A stretch of 13,373 bases of DNA from positions 1 to 13,373 of the forward strand of contig JBLIRP010000095.1 of the NCBI GenBank assembly GCA_049472355.1. The letters run 5' to 3'. The stretch is from a bacterium. Lineage in GTDB: Bacteria > SZUA-182 > DTGQ01 > JAFGSM01. A program made the position numbers and the translations under genes. The stretch's first letter is position 1, and every line of letters starts with the position of its first letter. Positions 2,425 to 13,373 of this stretch are shown here, piece after piece. The notes beneath the pieces were generated by a model, which saw only the letters and a list, made by a program, of their open reading frames with translations, was not told the origin of the DNA and did no database searches.

Positions 2425-5424
2425 TCAGCGCTGGCAGGAGGAGATAAAACAGGTATACCCCTGCGGAAGCCCCACGCTGGTGAAGTCCGTATTCAGATCC
2501 GTTCCGGTGCCTGCCCCGGTCCCTGATGTGGGTGTCGCCGAATTGGGTATCAATCCCTCCTCCGATGGGCTGCTCTCCACCCCGTAGATATTATAGGCGG
2601 CAACCTGGACCTTGTAGGAAACCGTGGGATCGAGCCCCGACAGGAGATAATAGGTGGTGTTCCCCACATCCACCTTCGACAAGGTGGTCTGAGCAATGGG
2701 ATTCGTCCCCTGAGTGCTGCTCTGACTCGAAGAGGATGATGACGAGGACGAGGATGACGACCCTCCTCCTCCCTCCATACCCCCGCCGCCCTCGGTGCGA
2801 TCACTGGATGAGGAGGATGATGAGGAGGAGGAGCTGCTGTTCTGCATGAAACGGGTATCCGCGATCAGGGGGCGCGAGGTCCCGAAGGAAGGGCCATAGT
2901 AAAGATTATACCCGATCGCGTCCGGACTCTGATTCCACTGAACGGTGGCCCCCCGATTCTGGATGGTCACGATCAGGGAGTTGGGCGGGGTGGGGGCCTG
3001 GCTGATCCCCCTCAGGCCGAAGGTCTTCCTTATCAATTCACTATGGGCGCTCCCATATTTCACCTGATCCACGATCTGGACGTTCACCAGGAAATCCAGG
3101 TAGGTGGCGGGCTTGGCCATGCGGGCAAAATGAAAGAGGGTGTCCGCGATCCCGATCCCCTGGTCCCCGTATTCCTTGCGCAACTCCTGCCTGAGGTCCC
3201 ACATGGCCCCCGAGAGGATCAGGCTGCTCTGGTAAAGTTCCTGGCCATAGTTGATCAAGTAGTTGAGGTTATTATCCAGGTTCCTGACGCTGTCGTGATC
3301 GATCCAGAAGCCTCCCTCGGCGATCTTTGAATCGTTGGTGATGGTGCACGCCCAGTAATCGGAGAACGCCTCGTGCATCGCATCGAATTCCGAAAAGCGC
3401 GAGAGCGCGGCGTACCCGCCTGACTCCCCTATCCACTTACTCAGGCTCTCCAGGGTGCCGTAGATACTGTCGGTGATCGCATGGGTGCACTCGTGATAGA
3501 TGATGTCCGCAAAATGGGCGAAATTCCCGTATTCCAGCTTGTCCCCCTCGCCGAAAAAGATCCCTTCCCCGGGCATCCAGAATGAATTGTTGTATTCCTT
3601 GTCATACCGGATGGTAACCGGAATGGGAAAATATTCGGCCGACTCCGACCAGAACTCCGGGTCGATCTCCTGGATATACCGTACCAGGTGATTGGCATGA
3701 TAAAAGACATTTATTTCATCGATGTCACCGAGGGCGTTCACGGTTCCCGCCTTGGTGCCCACGTCGTAGTCGGTAACACGGGTGATATTCATGTTCTGTC
3801 CGGTTGCCCCGGACTTCACACTACTCTTTGTATACACCGCCGATGCACCGTCCTCATTGATGATCTGGAAGTACCGTCCCTCGAGCTTGGAGCCCAGGAT
3901 GTTTTTGGAGGCCTCTCCGGTGATGGAGTAGTAACCCTCATCATCGGCAAAGGCACTGGTACTGGTATACATCCCGATATCGTCGATATTCCACCCGCAA
4001 TAGCTCACGTACCCGTTGGTCGGGCCCATGCCCCATCGAAGAAAGATATTCTGCCGGCCATCGGCCCACTTGGAGACATCATGCAGTATCAGTCGCCACC
4101 CCCCGTCGTAGATATTCTCTTCGGGATTGGTCCAGATCTTCCACCAGGTGGAGGTAGCCCCGTCGGCAATTTCTATGGAGGCGCTGTCCGCCTCGGAGCC
4201 CTCAACCCCGAGCCACCGCCAGAAACGCAGATAGATATCGCCTTTTCCGGCGCAATTGACGGGATTCAGGGTGGTGAGATACTGGGGTGCCCACATGTTG
4301 AGGGGGTAATACCCATTGAGACTGAACCCGTAAAAATTGTTCCCCGTATGGCCCGTCTCCGGTCCCGGTCCCCCTGCACCGACCACGGGATATCCGGTGG
4401 GCCTCCCGTATTCCCATCCATATGCAGCCGTACCGATCCATCCCGGATTGCTGTCGAGTGATTCGTACATCAGGGGCGGATCGTCCCGCAGGCATATGAC
4501 CTTTGCGTAGGGGAGCGGCACGTCCACCGGATTGTCCTGTGAATACCTGGGCAGCACCTGCCCCCGTATCTGCCCGGAAACCAGGAACCTGCCAAGATCC
4601 TCTCTTACCAGGATATGCCCGCTGTCCGCTTGGACGAGGTAGTGCCGTCTTCGGAGTGGCTTCAAAGACCTGAAGGTAAGGTCCCAGGCCCACACATAGT
4701 TCAATTCCTCATCCTCCACGAGAGGATAGAGGACCAGTTCCTTCCCGATGCATTCCATCTCAGGCAAGGGGGAGGGATCACCCATATCCGCCTGTGCGGC
4801 GGCTATCGCCTGCTCCACTCCGGAGACAGGGGGGGCGGGCGCATCCACCCCCGGGAAGTGGCCCATGGTTACGGAGAGGACCTCCAATGCATCCGAGAGG
4901 ATGAAGGAGATGGTGCCCCCGTATACGGGAAGGCCCCTGTATACCTGACCGAATTCCACGAACCACATCCCCCCCCGATGGGTAGATTGTCGATGCCGAA
5001 TCTCATCAATGTCAAGGCCGAACAGGTCCTTATTCTGCCGGATAAAGGCAATGCACCCCTGGGTGACATCAGCCGGGCCGTTGAATCCCCGCGGCGCATC
5101 CAGTTGTATCCCTTGCCCGAGGATACGATACGCCTGCCCGGAATCCGGCCTGCCGAGGACACGGACACGTTCGCCATATCGCGCGAAAAAGCCCTTCCAT
5201 GCCTCGTTCGTATTTTTCAAGGTGTCCGGGGCAAGGGAACGGGCCGACGCAGGGGATGTATTTTCCCCTGCCGTTACGCCCCTTTGACGTGTCCGGGGAG
5301 ACATGAATCCCTGGGTAAGGTTTGGGGAAAGAAGCAACAGGAGGAATACGAAAAGACTGATGAGCACCATGGATTCGCATCGTATCATGGTGCTCGCCGG
5401 TACAAAGGGGCACTGCTTGGTCAT
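2425..5424 (-). CDS. Secreted thermolysin-like (M4/M36-type) zinc metallopeptidase, paralog A, with propeptide, inserted jelly-roll domain, Fn3 and C-terminal CFI motif
   Basis: Hydrophobic signal region (VLISLFVFLLLLLSP; true start may be 5388 or 5370), FTP-like FGQVYRGLPVYGG, PepSY-like YLVQADSGHIL, NSFW, FGEGD, HECTH (3481-3495), third ligand in DAMHEAFSDY, Fn3 (WNQSPDAIGYNLYY...LSGLDPTVSYKVQVAAYN). Confidence 0.85.
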   Translation of the reverse strand: MTKQCPFVPASTMIRCESMVLISLFVFLLLLLSPNLTQGFMSPRTRQRGVTAGENTSPASARSLAPDTLKNTNEAWKGFFARYGERVRVLGRPDSGQAYRILGQGIQLDAPRGFNGPADVTQGCIAFIRQNKDLFGLDIDEIRHRQSTHRGGMWFVEFGQVYRGLPVYGGTISFILSDALEVLSVTMGHFPGVDAPAPPVSGVEQAIAAAQADMGDPSPLPEMECIGKELVLYPLVEDEELNYVWAWDLTFRSLKPLRRRHYLVQADSGHILVREDLGRFLVSGQIRGQVLPRYSQDNPVDVPLPYAKVICLRDDPPLMYESLDSNPGWIGTAAYGWEYGRPTGYPVVGAGGPGPETGHTGNNFYGFSLNGYYPLNMWAPQYLTTLNPVNCAGKGDIYLRFWRWLGVEGSEADSASIEIADGATSTWWKIWTNPEENIYDGGWRLILHDVSKWADGRQNIFLRWGMGPTNGYVSYCGWNIDDIGMYTSTSAFADDEGYYSITGEASKNILGSKLEGRYFQIINEDGASAVYTKSSVKSGATGQNMNITRVTDYDVGTKAGTVNALGDIDEINVFYHANHLVRYIQEIDPEFWSESAEYFPIPVTIRYDKEYNNSFWMPGEGIFFGEGDKLEYGNFAHFADIIYHECTHAITDSIYGTLESLSKWIGESGGYAALSRFSEFDAMHEAFSDYWACTITNDSKIAEGGFWIDHDSVRNLDNNLNYLINYGQELYQSSLILSGAMWDLRQELRKEYGDQGIGIADTLFHFARMAKPATYLDFLVNVQIVDQVKYGSAHSELIRKTFGLRGISQAPTPPNSLIVTIQNRGATVQWNQSPDAIGYNLYYGPSFGTSRPLIADTRFMQNSSSSSSSSSSSSDRTEGGGGMEGGGGSSSSSSSSSSSSQSSTQGTNPIAQTTLSKVDVGNTTYYLLSGLDPTVSYKVQVAAYNIYGVESSPSEEGLIPNSATPTSGTGAGTGTDLNTDFTSVGLPQGYTCFISSCQR
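2715..2839 (-). repeat. Poly-Ser / Gly-rich low-complexity coding tract inside the Fn3 domain of paralog A
   Basis: Encodes S12-DRTEGGGGMEGGGG-S13-QSS with mixed Ser codons. Confidence 0.9.
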
Positions 5425-5435
5425 GTCATCCCTGC

Positions 5436-5463
5436 ATGCTAAAATGGTCCTGTTTCATGTCAA
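5436..5463 (-). promoter_or_regulatory. Possible sigma70-type promoter of paralog A
   Basis: Minus strand TTGACA (5463-5458), 16 nt, TAGCAT (5441-5436); another TATAAT lies at 5542-5537. Confidence 0.35.
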
Positions 5464-5729
5464 GTGTTCGATAACTCCCTTGTCCTATAACTGTTCGTTT
5501 GACCTAACATGCATATACAATACCAGGCAAAGACCGATTATAGTATGCGCAATAATTCATATTATTCAGACTGCATGGGCTTTTTGATGTGAAACAGGGA
5601 GGGGGGGCATGCTCAAAATATGATCTTCGGTGTATGATAATTGACCTTCTGCCTGATACACTCCGGCAAAGACCCTGCGCGATTCCAGCATGGATTTCCG
5701 CAGCCCCCGGCGACCCCCTGCCTACGGAT

Positions 5730-8513
5730 CTAATGAGCAACCGATTCGATAAAGCAAAACACCCTCTTCTCCGATCCCCCGCTTGTCAGTGAAGACACGG
5801 TATAAGGGGTTGCATAGGCGAGTTCCGAAGGATCGCTCTCTGCACGGTAGATATTGTACGAGGTCACCTTCAGCACATAGGTGGTGCCGTTAGTCAGGCC
5901 ATCCAGACGATAGGTCGTATTCAGCCCTGCATCCCTTCGGACGCTCGGGTCCTCCCGGTCGGACACGATATCGTTCTCCGTTCGGAAGTACATGTAATAT
6001 CCGGCCACCTCCTCGCTGTCGGGATTTTCCTTCCATTCCAGATCCACATGGGTGTCACCGGCTACCGCCACCAGGCCGCTCGGTGCAGTAGGCGCCCTGC
6101 TTATGCCGCGGAGGCCGAATATATCCTTGATCACCGATACATGCTCCCCGGTATACGAGATCTCATCCTGAAGGAGCACGTCCACGAGAAAATCGTCAAA
6201 GGTGGTTGCCCCACCGTACCGGGCCAGATGGAAGAGTGAGTCCGCGACCTCACTGCCCAGCAATTCCCGTGTCTCCCACATCGCGCCGGACAGTATGAGG
6301 CTGTTGGCATAGGCGTCGTCACCATAGTCATCCGGGTACTTGAAGGAGTTGTCCAGATTCCTCACATAGGCGTGTCCGATCCAGAAGTCCCCATCCCCCA
6401 CCATGGAATCCCCGTTCAAGGTGCATGCCCAATAATCGGAGAATGCCTCGTGCATGGCGTCAAACTCGGTCACGAACACCGGCCCGGTCTGCTCGCCGTC
6501 GGTGGTCCTTCGTATGGAGGTAAGGGGGGGCATGAACAGGGAGTAGAAGCTGTCGGTGACGGCATGGGCATACTCGTGATAGACGATGTCGGAAAAATGC
6601 ACAAAATTCCTGTACCCATCCACACAGGAATCCCCCTCGCCAAAGCAGATCAGGTGTCGTGGCGACCAGAAGGCGTTCAAGTAGTTATCCCCATAGCGGA
6701 CCACAACCGTGATGGGGCCCTTCTTGTCCATGACATCATAGAGGGGATCGATCCCCTTGACGGTGCGCAAGAGGCGGTCCACGTGATAGAAGGCGTTGAG
6801 CTCGTCAAATGCCTTGACCGTGGTATAGTTCGTATCCCAGTCCACCGCAAAGGGGGTATTGGGATCCGCACCGATCCCTTCAATGGTATAGATGGCGGCG
6901 GAGCCATCCTCGTTCTGCACATCCACATACTCCCCCATCAGGCGGCAGACCAGGGTGTTATCCGGAACCCCTCCGGTGTCTGGAAACTGGAAATACCCGT
7001 TGGGGTCCGTCACCTCCTTGAGACTCTCGTATAGCCCGACGTCATCCACATTCCACCCGCAGAATATCCCCGAGCCATCGGTGGGGCCCATTCCCCAACG
7101 GATGGCCACCGACTTCCCGTCCGCCAGGTCCGAGATGTCGAAAAACTGCAGGTTCCACCCCTTCCATGCATGGAGAAAGGCATCGTACACCCCGTCCTCG
7201 ATCTGGCTGGTCCCGTTCGACCAGATGGCCGTCCAGGTCAGGCCGGCATCACTGGAGACCTCTACGGTGGCCCGGTCGTACGTGGTGCGTGTTTCCTCGT
7301 CGTCCTCCCAGTATTCCCTCTGTACTCCCAGCCAGCGCTGGAATATGAGGGTGACCCCGGTCTTGTTCGTACAGGATATGGCATGGGTGGTGAGATATTT
7401 GGGCCGCATGAGGTTCGTGTAATCCCCGGTCAGATTGTATCCGAACACATTCTGGCCGGTGAAGCCACTGTTTGGATCAGGGCACCCCGCATGACCATAG
7501 AAGTTGATGTCCTGGGGCTCCGGATCGCCGAACTCCCACATCCCCTCACGGGTCCATCCGGGATCCGTATCCAGGTTGCTCTCGTACACGGGTTGATCAA
7601 AATTGAGCAGATGGACATACTGATTGCTGAAGGGGACCCACTGCGGGGGATCATTGAAATACTCCGGCAGCACCAGCCCCCTGACCGTTCCCTGAACCGC
7701 TCGACGGTCAAGGTCATAGGTAAGGATTATCTCACCGGAGTGCGCGTCGATGAAGAACAGCCTGCTTCCCGATGACGCACCTGCCCATACCGGGACCTGC
7801 CAAGCAAGGAGATACTCAACACCCGCATCCGTGGGCACCGGAAGAACAAACAGGCCTATCTCACCGATGTCATCCTGGTGTGCCTCCATTCCAGTAATCT
7901 CCCTGACCATCAGCTCCGCCTCATAGGAACTGAGCGCCGTATGGGGTGAAACCGAAATCCCCGGATAGGTGTCCCCGCAGATCATCAGGAGATTGCCTGC
8001 CTCGTCGAAACGGAACCTTATCCCCCCGCCATAGACAGGGATCCCTTGGTAGTATTGCCTCAGCCGGCAATAGATGATCCCTCCGCGCCGGATGATGTCC
8101 TCTTCGACCAGATCCCCGTCCGATACCTTGAAGCAATCCGATTGGTCACGGATGAGCTGCCGGACAGAGGACCATATCTCCTGGTCGGTCACTGTGCCTG
8201 CCCTCAATCGGATGGCCTGAGAGGGACGTTTTGCATAAAGCCGATGGATCGTACCCCAGTCATTCCACAGACCTACCCATTCCTGACCGGACGCATCCCG
8301 TAATCTCCGTAATCCCTCCCCTGCCCCGCCTTCATGCGAAACTTTAAGGCGATTCGGGGTGAGGTTTCTTCGTGAAAGGTTTATCCGATGCCCTCCCGCA
8401 TCGGGAAGAAAGGCGCGGGCGGGCGTTACAAGCCACATGAATACCACAATCCCTGCAATGCACCCCAACCAACACCGCACACTGTTTTTTCCCGGGTAGG
8501 AACATACTGCCAT
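5730..8513 (-). CDS. Secreted thermolysin-like (M4/M36-type) zinc metallopeptidase, paralog B, same architecture as paralog A
   Basis: Signal peptide ending PARA, LRQYYQGIPVYGG, FFIDAHSGEII, NAFW, FGEGD, HEYAH (6564-6578), DAMHEAFSDYW, Fn3 (LDGLTNGTTYVLKVTSYN), C-terminus FCFIESVAH. Confidence 0.88.
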   Translation of the reverse strand: MAVCSYPGKNSVRCWLGCIAGIVVFMWLVTPARAFLPDAGGHRINLSRRNLTPNRLKVSHEGGAGEGLRRLRDASGQEWVGLWNDWGTIHRLYAKRPSQAIRLRAGTVTDQEIWSSVRQLIRDQSDCFKVSDGDLVEEDIIRRGGIIYCRLRQYYQGIPVYGGGIRFRFDEAGNLLMICGDTYPGISVSPHTALSSYEAELMVREITGMEAHQDDIGEIGLFVLPVPTDAGVEYLLAWQVPVWAGASSGSRLFFIDAHSGEIILTYDLDRRAVQGTVRGLVLPEYFNDPPQWVPFSNQYVHLLNFDQPVYESNLDTDPGWTREGMWEFGDPEPQDINFYGHAGCPDPNSGFTGQNVFGYNLTGDYTNLMRPKYLTTHAISCTNKTGVTLIFQRWLGVQREYWEDDEETRTTYDRATVEVSSDAGLTWTAIWSNGTSQIEDGVYDAFLHAWKGWNLQFFDISDLADGKSVAIRWGMGPTDGSGIFCGWNVDDVGLYESLKEVTDPNGYFQFPDTGGVPDNTLVCRLMGEYVDVQNEDGSAAIYTIEGIGADPNTPFAVDWDTNYTTVKAFDELNAFYHVDRLLRTVKGIDPLYDVMDKKGPITVVVRYGDNYLNAFWSPRHLICFGEGDSCVDGYRNFVHFSDIVYHEYAHAVTDSFYSLFMPPLTSIRRTTDGEQTGPVFVTEFDAMHEAFSDYWACTLNGDSMVGDGDFWIGHAYVRNLDNSFKYPDDYGDDAYANSLILSGAMWETRELLGSEVADSLFHLARYGGATTFDDFLVDVLLQDEISYTGEHVSVIKDIFGLRGISRAPTAPSGLVAVAGDTHVDLEWKENPDSEEVAGYYMYFRTENDIVSDREDPSVRRDAGLNTTYRLDGLTNGTTYVLKVTSYNIYRAESDPSELAYATPYTVSSLTSGGSEKRVFCFIESVAH

Positions 8514-8696
8514 GGTGAAGACATCCTATGTTAGAGATTAACCACTGCGTTCACCGGGACCGGAATGGCCGGATGTGCCGGCGACTCATCCGATCAACAC
8601 GGGATTCCCTGTGCCCGCGGCGAACGCCTACCCCTTCTTCCTACAGTGCATACACGTAGAGCTTCTGTATGTATATCGGCAAAAATGACTCAGCAG

Positions 8697-8785
8697 AACG
8701 GACGGATGCCGTTACCAGTTGAGGTCAAGGGAACGGCGGATATGGTCGGAGATCTGCCTGGTGATCCGGAATGCCTCGGTGGCAG
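8697..8785 (-). repeat. Direct repeat copy R1 (3' end of MetE-like gene)
   Basis: 89 bp, 8 mismatches to 10845-10933 by manual ungapped alignment; minus strand encodes ATEAFRITRQISDHIRRSLDLNW-stop. Confidence 0.95.
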
Positions 8786-8854
8786 ATAGCGAAAAGAGGG
8801 GACAATTTACCAGGGGAGGAGAATCGCTGGAAAGGGAAAATACCCTGAAAAGGC

Positions 8855-8985
8855 CGGATAGGTCATCGGGTCGATGTTTTGGCTACGTGAGGGATTGGGT
8901 TGAGAAGAAGCTGCGGCGGCATCTGATGCGTGCCCGAAAGCGCAAGGGCTTCGGATGGAAAAGGTGGACCAGGTCCTGGCTGTCT
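8855..8985 (+). mobile_element. Short remnant of a group II intron reverse transcriptase/maturase (C-terminal maturase/thumb segment)
   Basis: Translates as (RIGH)/SGRCFGYVRDWVEKKLRRHLMRARKRKGFGWKRWTRSWL, recognisable as the tail of bacterial group II intron-encoded proteins. No YADD and no intron domain V/VI seen. Confidence 0.7.
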
Positions 8986-9041
8986 ACTCGACGCAGCGAC
9001 AGAATGGCGTTTTATTGAGGTGAGCGAGGGTGGTATATGCC

Positions 9042-9464
9042 CTATCTTATATCCTCAATCCAGGCGATGTGCTTCTTGAATCGACCATTCCTAATGCCTT
9101 CGTAGAGCCTGCGGTCGGATGTCACCATCCTGGCATCGAGAAGGGCGGCAAGGGCAACGTATAGGCAGTCGTATATGCTCTGTCCCATCTGGTTGGCGAT
9201 GGCGAATGCTGAATTGAGATACGATACAAACGGATGATTTTGTATCGGATATCGGCGAAGTGCATCCCGTAGCTCCATTCCCTCTTCCACCGTGACGACA
9301 CCGCGCCGAATCCACTTGCAGATTATGCTGTCCATCTCAAGAAACAGAAAATCGGGCGCATGGAGCCGGTTCCTTCCGTTCAGAACCGAGAGTGCGGCAT
9401 CGCTATATTCCTCATCGACAAACCATTTTGCCGCAACACTCGCATCCACGATGAACACGCTCAC
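9042..9464 (-). CDS. vapC: PIN-domain toxin, VapC/FitB family
   Basis: IVDASVAAKW, LHAPDFLFLE, SIYDCLYVALA, MVTSDRRL; GTG start overlaps the antitoxin stop (GTGA). Confidence 0.92.
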   Translation of the reverse strand: MSVFIVDASVAAKWFVDEEYSDAALSVLNGRNRLHAPDFLFLEMDSIICKWIRRGVVTVEEGMELRDALRRYPIQNHPFVSYLNSAFAIANQMGQSIYDCLYVALAALLDARMVTSDRRLYEGIRNGRFKKHIAWIEDIR

Positions 9465-9700
9465 TTCGCTCTGTCCTCTCGGATGAGTTCCCCCGTGTCA
9501 GGAAATCTCCTGCCCTTAAACCTCCGACGGAACTCCTCGGATATCCTAAGAGCCGCCTCCATGTCCACCTTGGGCTCCGCTGCGGCCTGCTCGAGAATGA
9601 ACTTCACCTCGGATTGCAGAGAACGTCCTTCTTCTTTGGCGCGTTTCTTAAGACGCTCGACAATGTCTTTGTCTAAGTCTCGAACCAGAATCTGTGCCAT
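9461..9700 (-). CDS. FitA-like ribbon-helix-helix (Arc-family) antitoxin
   Basis: MAQILVRDLDKDIVERLKKRAKEEGRSLQSEVKFIL and C-terminal ELIREDR; GAGG RBS 6 nt before ATG 9700; coupled to the PIN gene. Confidence 0.9.
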   Translation of the reverse strand: MAQILVRDLDKDIVERLKKRAKEEGRSLQSEVKFILEQAAAEPKVDMEAALRISEEFRRRFKGRRFPDTGELIREDRAK

Positions 9701-9716
9701 GATTATCCTCATGCCT

Positions 9717-9759
9717 CATATGCTATCGTTATGATAGCATATGGCTTTGCCCTTGTCAA
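9717..9759 (-). promoter_or_regulatory. Promoter and palindromic operator of the FitAB-like operon
   Basis: TTGACA (9759-9754), 17 nt, TATCAT (9736-9731); the perfect 11-bp inverted repeat CATATGCTATC-N5-GATAGCATATG (9717-9743) overlaps the -10 box. Confidence 0.8.
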
Positions 9760-9922
9760 TACGCTTTTGTCAGATCGGGCTGAGCATTCTCCAGCATTTG
9801 ATTTGATTTTTATGATAGAAATTGCTCTTCCGGACAACATGATGGGTAAGGTTTTCAATTCTTGTCAATGCACATATTCAAGCAGAACCAAGCAGATGGG
9901 GATGGCCTGAGATGGATGTTTG

Positions 9923-10020
9923 AACGAATGGATGTGGTTACTATTCGAGGTCAGAGGAGGTGCGGATATGCTCGGAGATCTGCCTGGTGATCCGGAATGC
10001 CTCGGTGGCCGCCTCCACGG
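9923..10020 (-). repeat. Direct repeat copy R2 (3' end of MetE-like gene)
   Basis: 98 bp, 14 mismatches to 10845-10942 by manual ungapped alignment; minus strand encodes VEAATEAFRITRQISEHIRTSSDLE-stop-stop. Confidence 0.93.
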
Positions 10021-10064
10021 TATCCCTGGTGCCCCTCTTTATCACGATGCCCAATTCAACATTT

Positions 10065-10093
10065 TTGACGATTAATGGATTATAGGTTAATAT
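10065..10093 (+). promoter_or_regulatory. Possible sigma70-type promoter of hicB-hicA
   Basis: TTGACG, 17 nt, TAATAT in an AT-rich stretch about 75 nt before hicB. Confidence 0.45.
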
Positions 10094-10166
10094 ATCATTA
10101 AGCTAACATATTATTTCCCTCTGTTTTTAATGATGTACCAAGATGTGATTAGTTAGGGGCTACCTT

Positions 10167-10469
10167 ATGAAAAATAAAATGCCTATAAAAATTAAAGGGA
10201 AGATTCCCGTGAGTTTCTTTAAAGAAGGCAGGATGTTCGTAGCATATTCCATTGTTCTGGATCTTTCTACTTGTGGCGAAACATTTGAAGAAGCGAAGAA
10301 AAATTTCATGGAAGCCTTGAACATTTTTTTTGAAGAGTGTATTAAAATGGGGACCTTGGTTGAAGTTCTGGAATCCTATGGATGGGAAAAAATAGGAAAA
10401 TCATGGCAACCGCCAGCCTACATCGGACATGAAGATTTACCAATACCTCTCCAACAATTGCATTCATAA
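10167..10469 (+). CDS. hicB: Short HicB-family antitoxin (partial RNase H fold only)
   Basis: FKEGRMFVAYSIVLDLSTCGETFEEAKKNFMEALNIFFEE; no C-terminal HTH/RHH; TAATG-coupled to hicA; AT-rich. Start may be 10179. Confidence 0.8.
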   Translation: MKNKMPIKIKGKIPVSFFKEGRMFVAYSIVLDLSTCGETFEEAKKNFMEALNIFFEECIKMGTLVEVLESYGWEKIGKSWQPPAYIGHEDLPIPLQQLHS

Positions 10470-10699
10470 TGAGTAAATTAGGTCCAATCCATCATACCAG
10501 ACTTGAAAAATTTGCAGAGTATGTTGGTTGTGTTTTCATAAGGCAAGAAGGCAGCCATAAGGTGTATTGGAGATCGGACCAAATTCGGCCTGTAATTATT
10601 CCTCAATACAAGGAAGTACCTCTATTTATCATACAGAATATCTTAAGGCAACTTAAGATTTCACGAGATGAATATCTTCAAATATTAGACAAGCTCTAA
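10469..10699 (+). CDS. hicA: HicA-family mRNA interferase toxin
   Basis: 76 aa, FIRQEGSHKVY (GSH catalytic His), RPVIIP, IIQNILRQLKISRDEY. Confidence 0.9.
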   Translation: MSKLGPIHHTRLEKFAEYVGCVFIRQEGSHKVYWRSDQIRPVIIPQYKEVPLFIIQNILRQLKISRDEYLQILDKL

Positions 10700-10722
10700 C
10701 CCACCAATTACTTCTAAAGTAG

Positions 10723-10760
10723 GGCTGTCTGAGGGCAGCCGCCTGAGGATTATGTTTTTT
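10723..10760 (+). terminator. Possible hairpin terminator after hicA
   Basis: GGCTGTC-TGAG-GGCAGCC stem-loop; the T6 run lies about 14 nt downstream, not adjacent. Confidence 0.25.
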
Positions 10761-10844
10761 GGATCTTCCATGACTCACGCCCCGGCATGGAGATCCTTGG
10801 TTCGATAATCCGATTCTCATCTTCTGCAAAGAGCTACTCGTCCT

Positions 10845-10942
10845 AACGAATGGATTCCGTTACCAGTTGAGGTCAAAGGATTGGCGGATATGCTCGGAGA
10901 TCTGCCTGGTGATCCGGAAGGCCTCGGTGGCAGCCTCCGTGG
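10845..10942 (-). repeat. Direct repeat copy R3, contiguous with the MetE-like gene fragment
   Basis: Matches R1 and R2; minus strand encodes TEAATEAFRITRQISEHIRQSFDLNW-stop plus 15 nt beyond the stop. Confidence 0.95.
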
Positions 10943-11160
10943 AGACGGTGCCCAGGCCGCAGGCAGGGGTGATGAGGGACTGGGCCGCGATATCCCTCGT
11001 ATCAAAACCGAGCGTGGCGAGACGCTCCCACGCATTCTCGAGCCGTGCCAGGAGTGTTTCTGCGGTCTCCTTGCGGATATCCTCTTCATTGGTGGGTACG
11101 ATTCCCCAGGCGATCATACCCCCCGTTTGAAAGGAAGCCCTTGAGATCCTCTGATACGCC
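10860..11160 (-). pseudogene. C-terminal fragment of a single-barrel MetE-like (cobalamin-independent methionine synthase catalytic domain family) gene
   Basis: GGMIAWGIVPT and SLITPACGLG motifs. Two 1-nt frameshifts (extra G in the run at 11119-11124, missing base near 11152) restore Y(P)EDLKGFLSNGGMIAWGIVPT. About the first two-thirds of the gene is absent. Confidence 0.75.
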
Positions 11161-11176: not shown

Positions 11177-11405
11177 CTACGCGTGCACCGGCCCCGCCAG
11201 GGTCTCGAAGCATATCCTCTCAGGGGCAATACAGTTCAGAAAGACAGACCCGGCAAGGCAGCGGGCGCCGTTTCCGCACATCTCCACCTCGCCTCCGTCC
11301 GCATTGTAAAAGCGCATCCTGAAGTCGACCCGGTCCGAGCGCTCCACCATAATGAGGCCGTCCGCGCCCAGCGAGATCCGCCGCGTGCAGATGGATCTGA
11401 CCGCA
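11177..11405 (-). pseudogene. dapF: Internal fragment of diaminopimelate epimerase
   Basis: [40 protein letters not shown]; lacks the N-terminus and second domain; ends at TAG. Confidence 0.88.
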
Positions 11406-11407
11406 GG

Positions 11408-11690
11408 TATGGCGAATATCTTTGCCGTGCTTGGACGTGACGTAGAGGACCCTGGTGACCATGATACCGGCATTGCCCACCAGAACCCTGCACGGCTCCG
11501 AGATGATCCTGCAGCCGAGGTCCCTCGCAACGGGGTGCAATGTCCGGGCCCACTCCTCAGGGCTCGCAGGCTCCTCCTCCCGGGAACGGATCCCGAGCCC
11601 TCCCCCCATATCCAGGGATAAGATCTCGATCCACTCCCCGGCAAGCCTTTTGACCAGTAGGCTTACCCGTTCCAGGGCCGACAGAACGGG
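11408..11690 (-). pseudogene. lysA: Internal fragment of diaminopimelate decarboxylase
   Basis: [13 protein letters not shown] (canonical EPGR), [16 protein letters not shown], then a frameshift to KIFAI; PLP-lysine region and C-terminus missing. Confidence 0.85.
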
Positions 11691-11713
11691 ACAGACAGAA
11701 CGGGGCCGATTTC

Positions 11714-11742: not shown

Positions 11743-11949
11743 TTATTATAGTTTCTCTTCATTTCATGAATCAACATCATCTATTTGCATTCAATTCATT
11801 TCTTCTTTGCTTATCAACTTGGATAATTAAAGGCACGGAGATAGCAGAAATTTATCCCTCTCACAAAGGATGGTGATGCCCACAGATATGAAGAGAGCTT
11901 TAGTGTTTTCAGGGGGGATAACTGTTCATTTGTTTTGGAGACATGGATT

Positions 11950-13373
11950 ATGAGGCCTTTCAATAAATTGTGCGTGATAACTGTATGCTGCATTGCAATC
12001 TCATTCCTGTGCATCACAGAGATACACGCTGCTTCAGAAAAGGCATCACCCGCAGGATCATCTTTACATGCCGCTCGACACGAGATATCTTCCCCTGACA
12101 GAAAGCCCTCCGGAACACCCCATGGGTCTTCCCTAAAGAATCATCAGCCTCTGAATACAGAGGAGGAATTCAGGCATAGATTCAAGGGTGAGATCATGAA
12201 AAGGGGCGGCAAGAATCATGATATCCCGAAATACATCGGAAGAATCGAGGCCAAGCCCACGGATGAAGATCCAAGGAAGTCGGCCCGGGCATTCTTAAAA
12301 GAGAGCGCACCGCTCCTGAAATTGACCACGGATAATCTCGACGAGGGATCGCTCAGCGAGCGGGGGAAATTCAAGCACGTGGAATTCAAGCAGCAATACA
12401 AAGGAATCCCCGTTGAGAGAGCACGCATAATGGTAAATATGCGCCAAAACGGAGAGATCATAAGCCTTGAGTCCGATTATGAGCCTGACCTGGACGGACT
12501 TGACATTGCAACAACACCGGATATAAATCCTCAGGATGCTATCTCGATTGTGGCTTCCGATCTTGGAGTGGTTGAGGAAGCGGCATACGGGCCGCTCTTG
12601 CCTGCTGAAGAATGCGAGTCATGCAAAGGCAATGGTGATATAACCGAGGGTATGCCGGTTTATGCCGAGAATTAACCCGTGCCAAAGGCAGAGTTGGTGA
12701 TCTTCCCCGATACCAAAGGCCAATTCTACCTTGCCTGGAAGGTAGCCTATTCGGATAATGTTCAAGGAAGCTGGGTCTATTATATCGACGCCCGCACGGG
12801 CACTATAATCGACCGTTTTGACAACCTGATACATTTTTCAGTGGACGGCACGGTAAGAGGCAACATCCTTCTCTTTAACGCATCTGATCCCTCTAATACG
12901 GTATCGATGGGGCTCCGGGACAGCCTTGTTTATGCTGACTATCGTGTTACCCATCAAGATTGCTATCGGGTATGCCTTAGAACGCGTTGGGTGTGTTGCC
13001 CTTGGCACATCGTTTGTGCTGCTTGGGAAACACGCTGCCATCCGCCGACTTATTCATGGTACACTAGCGACATAGAGGAAACCTCCTCTGACGGGAGTTA
13101 CAGCAATTTAAGCTTTGAAGACTCTGATCGATACAGGTTGCGCTTCGATCTGGACGGGAGTATTACACGGGTTATCAACTCAAAGAATGGCCTTTACAGC
13201 CGAACTGTCGAGAAGGACACCGTTGATGATCCTTTTGATTTTGTATTTTATGAGAATCCTGACGATCCTTATTCCCTCTTTGACAGCGTCAATGTCTTTT
13301 ATCATGTCACCGATACATTGGATAACTACTACGAGGATGAATTGGATTTTGAGTTGGGATACAAGATAATCTG
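11950..13373 (+). pseudogene. Third secreted M4/M36-type peptidase paralog (C), interrupted by one in-frame TAA and truncated by the window end
   Basis: GGAG then ATG 11950; signal peptide ending EIHA; HVEFKQQYKGIPV; TAA at 12673-12675. The same frame stays open to 13373: AELVIFP..YLAWKV..YYIDARTGTII..VDGTVRGNIL..FDSVNVFYHV, collinear with paralogs A and B. HExxH would lie beyond the window. Confidence 0.75.

Follow-up and report, generated by a model that had tools for sequence, protein, structure and literature searches.

A probable rolling-circle capture array of operon-end copies, toxin–antitoxin operons, and IS91-family relics on a bacterial chromosome

The window that we analyzed is a stretch of 13,373 nucleotides (nt) that makes up the entire contig JBLIRP010000095.1 (C144) of G000, a 3.49-Mb bacterial genome that is 87.5% complete (assembly GCA_049472355.1). 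It contains two toxin–antitoxin (TA) operons set between three copies of the end of a metE-like gene, together with relics of insertion sequences (IS) of the IS91 family. We consider it probable that this array is a dead and eroded stack of operon-end copies, TA operons, and IS91 relics that arose by repeated rolling-circle capture of the ISCR1 type combined with homologous rescue. The anatomy of the array is observed, and every step of movement is what we infer from it. The relatives used for comparison are G001–G005, and metagenome runs are designated by X-numbers.

Operon-end copies, IS91 relics, and toxin–antitoxin operons

Three direct repeats, R1 (8697–8785), R2 (9923–10016), and R3 (10845–10938), lie where the initial annotation had placed them, with start-to-start distances of 1226 and 922 bp and a common 48-bp core in which exactly two positions vary. 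Identity is 91% over 89 bp between R1 and R3, 87% over 94 bp between R2 and R3, and 85% over 88 bp between R1 and R2. Each copy consists of 24 codons, including the stop, and a further 15 nt, and all copies share one fixed 3′ end at stop+15. The BLAST search of the repeat against its own genome that had been proposed as a check returned no fourth copy in the 148 contigs of the assembly (E ≤ 1). The exact 24-nt core was found in no stretch of a metagenome contig collection and a degenerate core gave only two single matches, from unrelated taxa, in a genome contig collection, both of which may lack close relatives. A dyad with 5-bp arms and a 7-bp spacer covers the stop codon of each copy (8697–8714, 9923–9940, and 10845–10862) and is best preserved in R1; directly past it the repeat copies and the population alleles diverge. 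A recombinase core or an attC site were candidate readings of this dyad, and the repeats that hold it are relics of coding sequence.

The description of the repeats as 3′ ends of a MetE-like gene holds for these 24 codons and 15 nt but is incomplete, given that the gene piece closed by R3 is a fragment of 86 codons and that part of a second gene is attached to R2, and the name itself is loose. A full-length orthologue of the metE-like gene has no match in Pfam, NCBIfam, or PDB; the methionine synthase name comes only from language-model neighbours, and PF01717 was found on 26% of one cluster. R1 (8697..8785, minus strand) comprises the final 24 codons and 15 nt of the gene, as defined by the repeat alignment, and its junction with native DNA is present on X2 and X5 contigs; it is likely the displaced original gene end. 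R2 (9923..10020, minus strand), defined by the same alignment, has a degraded tail and a premature TAG. R3 (10845..11124, minus strand) corresponds to codons 264–350 of the orthologue and the following 15 nt.

The sequences upstream of R2 and R3 are remains of the operon to which the metE-like gene belongs. In relatives the intact operon is argF-argG-argH-lysA-dapF-dapA-dapB-FAH-metE-like, with the metE-like gene last (names were read off open reading frames (ORFs), except for lysA and dapF, which were assigned with Pfam, and FAH, which was assigned separately). R3 closes an 860-bp mosaic of three pieces of ~260 bp derived from lysA, dapF, and the metE-like gene. The dapF relic (11180..11413, minus strand) spans approximately codons 32–110, and the lysA relic (11433..11699, minus strand) approximately codons 206–294; in the overlap the latter is 81% identical at the nucleotide level to the lysA of G000 itself. 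That gene lies with argF-argG-argH on contig C14, which ends at lysA codon 234, and the rest of the working operon is unassembled. Fused to R2 is a 12-codon relic of FAH (10022..10057, minus strand), which in the intact operon comes just before the metE-like gene, with 67–75% amino acid identity to the FAH proteins of G002–G004; contigs from three runs match this relic and extend into FAH-like sequence on both sides. Based on the lysA/dapF/metE-like mosaic at R3 and the FAH piece at R2, we conclude that these are deletion-eroded multi-gene copies, once ~5 kb and ~1.4 kb in length, and not attachment (att) sites. The 5′ starts of the copies differ accordingly, falling in lysA for R3, in FAH for R2, and 24 codons from the gene end for R1. 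The small size of the units, remarked on initially, is a product of deletion rather than of design.

The differences between the relics and working alleles are mostly synonymous. The lysA relic differs from the genome's own lysA at seven synonymous and four non-synonymous codons over 22 codons, and the R3 relic differs from two intact alleles at synonymous to non-synonymous ratios of 7:4 and 7:6, counting only the differences listed for the contig alignments and excluding a stretch with compensating gaps. The synonymous excess is significant against an expectation of 25% (p 0.008–0.024). Because of this excess, the relics appear to have diverged while still functional, most simply in related lineages.

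Pieces of IS91-family elements adjoin the gene-end copies. An ori-side (replication-origin side) end (9809..9922, minus strand; nhmmer E 2e-15) is fused directly behind R2, within ~10 bp, points at fitA, and contains an outward sigma70-like site at 9868–9839; in this family the ori is the end downstream of the transposase, as described in PMC13181058 and PMC6354349. Farther along unit 1, the interval between R2 and R1, are a relic of the first transposase codons (8983..9042, minus strand), which is 81% identical over 54 bp to the transposase start on contig C3, and a truncated relic of the region that separates the transposase stop from the ori end (8780..8859, minus strand; nhmmer E 1e-6), which is joined to R1 at a 4–5 nt microhomology. 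Between them lies a fragment of a group II intron maturase, domain X (8857..8965, plus strand), which scores under the cut-off of the Pfam GIIM model (E 0.0014) and is 70% identical to plasmid LtrA proteins (E 1e-9). Read in the direction of the operon, the order in unit 1 is R2, ori-side end, fitA, toxin, transposase start, intron scrap, pre-ori region, and R1, so that the ori end faces the cargo. All three IS91 pieces belong to a dispersed family, the longest copy of which, on C3, is a deleted and frame-broken Y2-transposase gene with the same end sequence. Several ori ends of this family (on C3, C56, and C60) are followed by short tandem repeats of 6–7 bases. Approximately 11 bp behind R3, in the same operon-wise orientation as the piece behind R2, is a probable and heavily decayed relic of an IS91 transposase C-terminus (10702..10834, minus strand). 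When aligned to transposase C-termini with lenient scoring, the 145 bp behind R3 beat all 300 random genome segments for three of eight references; with strict scoring they outscored 296–300 of the 300.

One TA operon per unit, in opposite orientations, had been described, and the operons are as described, but unit 1 also holds the IS91 relics and the intron fragment. Unit 1 encodes on the minus strand a FitA-like ribbon–helix–helix (RHH) antitoxin of 83 amino acids (9461..9712; PF22513, 52.7 bits, cut-off 27), the stop of which overlaps the start of a PIN/VapC-type toxin with an open frame of 140 amino acids (9042..9464; PF01850, 37.8 bits, cut-off 23.6). Judged by sequence, this pair fits the FitAB/VapBC type II layout of an RHH antitoxin upstream of an overlapping PIN toxin. 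A sigma70-like promoter (9717..9759, minus strand; 11 of 12 positions) has an 11-bp perfect inverted repeat over its −10 box that is likely the autoregulatory operator of the fitA operon. Scans for promoters and terminators returned 7 and 4 sites versus 4.0 and 3.3 in shuffled sequence, so that any single site is weak evidence. Unit 2 encodes on the plus strand a short HicB-like antitoxin of 100 amino acids (10167..10469) that falls under the Pfam cut-off (PF15919, 17.2 bits, E 0.006, cut-off 27) and a HicA toxin of 76 amino acids (10469..10699) that exceeds it (PF07927, 41.6 bits). The differing base composition noted initially is that of unit 2 alone, which is clearly AT-rich (GC 0.38); unit 1 (0.51) is close to the genome (0.54). 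A hicBA module 79% identical at the nucleotide level occurs in G001 (L026:1481-2100, G001:C12) between prfB and lysS. In G000 the prfB-lysS interval (L165, G000:C123) has an ATPase and a partner in place of hicBA, a second hotspot with swapped cargo.

The site in relatives and metagenomes, and scars elsewhere in the genome

The suggestion that this is an accretion hotspot is borne out by the relatives and by metagenomes. G002 has an empty arrangement with ~370 bp between the metE-like gene and the downstream peptidase, and G005 has a similarly short gap; G004 has ~30 kb of different cargo, starting with an AbiE TA pair, and G003 has different cargo again. In G003 an IS91 ori relic lies ~310 bp behind the metE-like gene in the same orientation, and the remaining 5.4 kb of the contig hold no duplicate; a second gene-end copy is absent from the DNA fetched at both the G003 and G004 sites. 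Among metagenome contigs the gene end is followed by no fewer than five different sequences. The G004 cargo (L021:10890-18275, G004:C70) includes a KAP-type ATPase–FGE-like fusion, an HRDC protein, a reverse transcriptase, and a second protein with an FGE domain, and possibly represents a diversity-generating retroelement. G001, the closest genome (98.5% identity over 7.7 kb), has a contig that starts within the peptidase gene, and we did not find its operon.

The window, whole or in part, is contained in 20 runs from 7 studies. Junction alignments were made for 6 runs from 5 studies, one of which may be the source of the assembly. Contigs with 0–1 differences cover the junctions of native DNA with R1, of R2 with the hicB promoter, of hicA with R3, of the metE-like relic with the dapF relic, and of the dapF with the lysA relic, and the joins of R1 with IS91 and of IS91 with R2 are matched by consensus sequences of loose ends. 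One X5 contig carries a long gene end whose loose end, a consensus of two contigs, resembles native downstream DNA; from this resemblance, it would be the empty allele of a sister lineage. Because contigs break at the shared core, none of the records extends over two units, and the order of the units on one molecule is therefore presumptive; no joints that skip or go back across the repeats were listed, although the same breaks apply. The lack of unit 1 cover in X1, X5, and X8 was not counted as absence, given that only 61–76% of each run was covered and that the X1 word share of 0.84 is more than is possible without part of unit 1. In other taxa, 60 of 80 homologous metagenome loci have 1 kb or more of downstream DNA, and the gene end is repeated in none of these 60; five gave matches of 17–36 bp, none of them a gene-end copy.

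Like scars, 37–497 bp in length, occur at unrelated genes of G000. All 33 orphan gene fragments that lie no more than 30 kb from their source are in direct orientation, which plain tandem duplication would also produce. An IS91 relic lies within 8 of 32 duplicated pairs, versus 1.1 expected; the 32 are the 33 orphan fragments minus four tandem or paralogue cases plus three added by hand. Tested from the side of the relics, a direct copy of the 300 bp that lie upstream follows 7 of 30 IS91 relics (6 of 28 when this window is excluded). The corresponding counts are 5 of 238 for gene ends chosen at random (Fisher p 6e-5, or 2.6e-4 when the window is left out) and 2 of 150 for gene ends that precede low-GC DNA (p 5e-5). 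In G001–G005 the upstream copy was found for 3 of 27 testable relics and for none of 26 in the mirror control (21 regions with 28 distinct relics, many with little downstream DNA; one listed place was not included). The full order of gene end, IS91 relic, cargo, copy, and ori relic is preserved at G000:C31:1480-4921, where the end of ntpD is followed by an IS91 relic, cargo, a 93% identical ntpD copy, and an IS91 ori relic. This locus is the cleanest ISCR-like example in G000, and its cargo holds a probable HigA-like antitoxin. A locus on C56 has empty sites in four relatives; for loci on C72 and C83, comparison with relatives did not show which copy is native. Two further arrays, with gene labels taken from ORFs, contain IS91 pieces: at G000:C72:67797-85391 three gene-end relic copies lie behind an hdrA-like gene, and at G000:C141:5990-13056 a repeat-protein gene is followed by three relic copies, interspersed with AbiE-like and Phd-like genes.

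The array is bordered on its downstream side by native intergenic DNA behind R1 (8514..8696, minus strand), which has a 15-nt stretch in common with the G002 empty site, and then by an M4-family peptidase with an FN3 domain (5730..8513, minus strand; Pfam), the fixed downstream neighbour of the hotspot, with orthologues of 66–100% in G001–G005. This peptidase is one of two tandem M4 peptidases with FN3 domains at 2425–8513, each of which ends in a short CFI-containing tail, and the pair is present in G001, G002, G004, and G005. A third M4-type peptidase gene (11935–13373, plus strand), upstream of the lysA relic, has an in-frame TAA at 12673–12675 after the propeptide, is covered by contigs of three runs with 1–9 differences, and is probably cargo from an earlier round of capture.

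Rolling-circle capture and its alternatives

In the model that we favour, an IS91-type element would first be joined to the end of the metE-like gene. Replication that started at its ori end would pass beyond the element and enter the operon over different lengths, setting an operon piece with its IS beside foreign genes, and a second run-through would produce a circle of cargo, operon piece, and IS. Homologous recombination of the circle into the resident lysA…metE-like operon would then yield the order gene end, IS, cargo, and truncated operon copy, with the oldest unit farthest from the working operon. The donors would be related lineages, given that most differences between the relics and working alleles are synonymous, and deletions would subsequently strip nearly everything except the loss-resistant TA operons. 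The ISCR1-type model explains the fixed 3′ end, the variable 5′ starts, the IS pieces that follow R2 and R3, the native DNA after R1, and the lack of an integrase. Its components have precedent: in the account of PMC7707992, the layout of complex class 1 integrons arises through two run-through rolling-circle rounds, after which the circle is rescued by homology, and this may happen one or more times; PMC13181058 puts the run-through frequency of IS91 at 1–14%. TA systems lower IS801-driven deletions according to PMC6354349, and we suggest the survival of the TA operons on that basis. The initial annotation had offered homologous recombination as an alternative to a recombinase; it is probably half of the real mechanism but not the whole.

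Several observations weigh against this model. The assembly lacks the working operon, which leaves the first junction unreadable, and homologous rescue at 81–88% identity would be rare. We found no intact transposase of this IS91 subgroup in G000–G004, bearing in mind the incompleteness of G000, and no IS91 target tetramer (CTTG/GTTC or complement) at the ori in the window, the exact end of which is not fixed; GAAC is beside the ori in one of nine IS91 copies displayed. The relic behind R3 is weak, given that the 145 bp there have no protein-level IS91 match and unit 2 retains no ori. The G004 cargo has neither an IS91 relic nor a duplicate. Genome-wide, 24 of the 32 duplicated pairs have no IS91 relic, and without the three added by hand only 5 of 29 have one; the direction test in G000 is not significant (7 of 30 versus 2 of 28 for the mirror, p 0.15), and IS relics and scars may merely co-occur in variable regions.

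Given that most G000 scars have no IS91 relic and that the direction test is not yet significant, the main rival, which we regard as unlikely although by no means negligible, is sequential displacement without an element. DNA from related strains would enter by homologous recombination at its operon-side end and by illegitimate joining at the other end, either as homology-facilitated illegitimate recombination or as "insertion with long target duplication," and would push the old gene end downstream each time, with the IS91 relics as passengers of the hotspot. The uniformly direct orientation of the orphan fragments and the resemblance of the relics to foreign alleles agree with such displacement, and there are precedents in Vibrio cholerae type VI secretion system (T6SS) arrays (PMC5361080) and in restriction–modification (RM) insertions with long target duplication (PMC2853133). 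The presence of comEC in five of six genomes of the family is weak evidence for it, given that 10 of 14 control genomes also have this gene. It leaves unexplained the same-orientation IS91 pieces that abut R2 and R3 and the approximately tenfold enrichment of the order copy, IS, cargo, and copy.

Tandem tyrosine-integrase islands, in which elements carrying the 3′ end of the gene integrated serially and decayed to TA modules, are a good deal less plausible still. The native DNA after R1, as expected for a displaced gene end, the common end of all copies at stop+15 where the short dyad sits, and the existence of both empty and filled alleles would suit them. They are largely refuted by copies that include FAH, dapF, and lysA pieces from up to 5 kb upstream in the intact operon. 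The gene end is unduplicated in the 60 homologous loci and in G003 and G004, and the same scars occur at unrelated G000 genes. No island integrase was found in the window or in the search of the rest of G000, in which the upstream end of the locus is unassembled; the genome has two full-length tyrosine recombinases (PF00589), both outside the window, and the one that was checked is XerC/D-like. The proposal of att-like cassettes served by a recombinase in trans is not supported in view of the multi-gene remnants, the differing 5′ starts, the lack of duplication among these 60 loci, and a recombinase complement of only those two.

Plain tandem duplication of the operon end in one lineage, followed by independent TA and IS insertions and decay, is highly improbable. 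It is consistent with the direct orientation and the erosion by deletion, and TA modules do move alone, as the hicBA homologue at prfB-lysS in G001 indicates. Neutral decay predicts mostly non-synonymous change, yet synonymous changes dominate (as tested above), and the cargo differs between the units. We give equally little credence to a chimeric contig, in which the repeats would have linked alleles of different strains with one unit each: the breaks at the core, the lack of a record that spans two units, and the depth in X3 (28.8 with 13 differences for unit 1, like a more abundant sister population, versus ~5 for unit 2) are countered by agreeing depths in X2 (14.2 at the R2 end, 14.7 at the R3 relic, and 13.1 at the dapF join) and by the near-identical unit-to-repeat junctions in runs of several studies, and a chimera would leave the relics and IS91 fusions in place.

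Comparison with known systems

Short att blocks at the 3′ end of a gene are characteristic of tyrosine-integrase islands, whereas the duplication here extends to the FAH, dapF, and lysA relics. The T6SS immunity arrays and Rhs orphan tails of V. cholerae (PMC5361080) resemble the array in having the newest module beside the working gene, older ends pushed downstream, and no integrase. Their anchor is an effector locus with retained immunity genes, in contrast to a housekeeping operon with IS91 relics that abut the copies. Insertion with long target duplication (Furuta et al. 2010, PMC2853133) is similar in its insert of less than 20 kb, direct repeats of more than 30 bp, empty site in relatives, and selfish toxin-type cargo; it involves RM genes, no other mobile element, and near-identical repeats, unlike the TA cargo, IS91 and intron relics, and eroded multi-gene copies found here.

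The likeness to one-ended transposition of IS91, IS801, and IS1294, as presented in PMC13181058 and PMC6354349, lies in the Y2/HUH relics with an ori end downstream of a gene, and mobilisation of variable upstream lengths by this route would yield the variable 5′ starts of the copies. The window differs from active members of the family in that no intact transposase was found and no target tetramer is recognisable. The closest parallel is with ISCR1-linked complex class 1 integrons, which in the model of Toleman et al. (PMC7707992) have a conserved segment, an IS91-like element with its ori to the cargo, the cargo, and a truncated repeat, a layout that can recur and that, as here, needs no integrase for that part. 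We find an IS91-like element behind the repeated segment in the same orientation, then cargo, then a 5′-truncated repeat with a variable start. The anchor of the integrons is the 3′ conserved segment (3′-CS), whereas here it is the chromosomal lysA-dapF-dap-FAH-metE-like operon, so the array is not a class 1 integron; in addition, TA operons make up the cargo, only relics of the IS are left, and the copies are 81–91% alike rather than near-identical. In a literature search that most subscription papers lay outside, we found no published ISCR-type array of TA operons that is anchored at a housekeeping operon.

In its working the array resembles an ISCR capture array, although it is no longer mobile and its layout is already known for ISCR1. 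The element is dead and the layout published, so the surprise is modest: the array is likely a chromosomal fossil of a gene-capture route known from resistance plasmids and not a new cassette system. More tentatively, and with less than even confidence, we propose that in this family of sediment bacteria IS91-type capture and homologous rescue generally build TA/defence islands, without an integrase, where housekeeping operons end (lys, V-ATPase, hdrA, and ABC transporter), moving kilobase operon pieces between species that are 80–90% alike; complex class 1 integrons would then have such arrays as their natural precursors on chromosomes. Brief gene-end repeats that flank TA modules are not necessarily att sites and may be what deletion has left of kilobase operon copies. 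If the IS91 route is correct, TA operons are cargo that outlasts erosion, and the capture mechanism of resistance plasmids is also at work in shaping chromosomes of uncultured bacteria from the environment.

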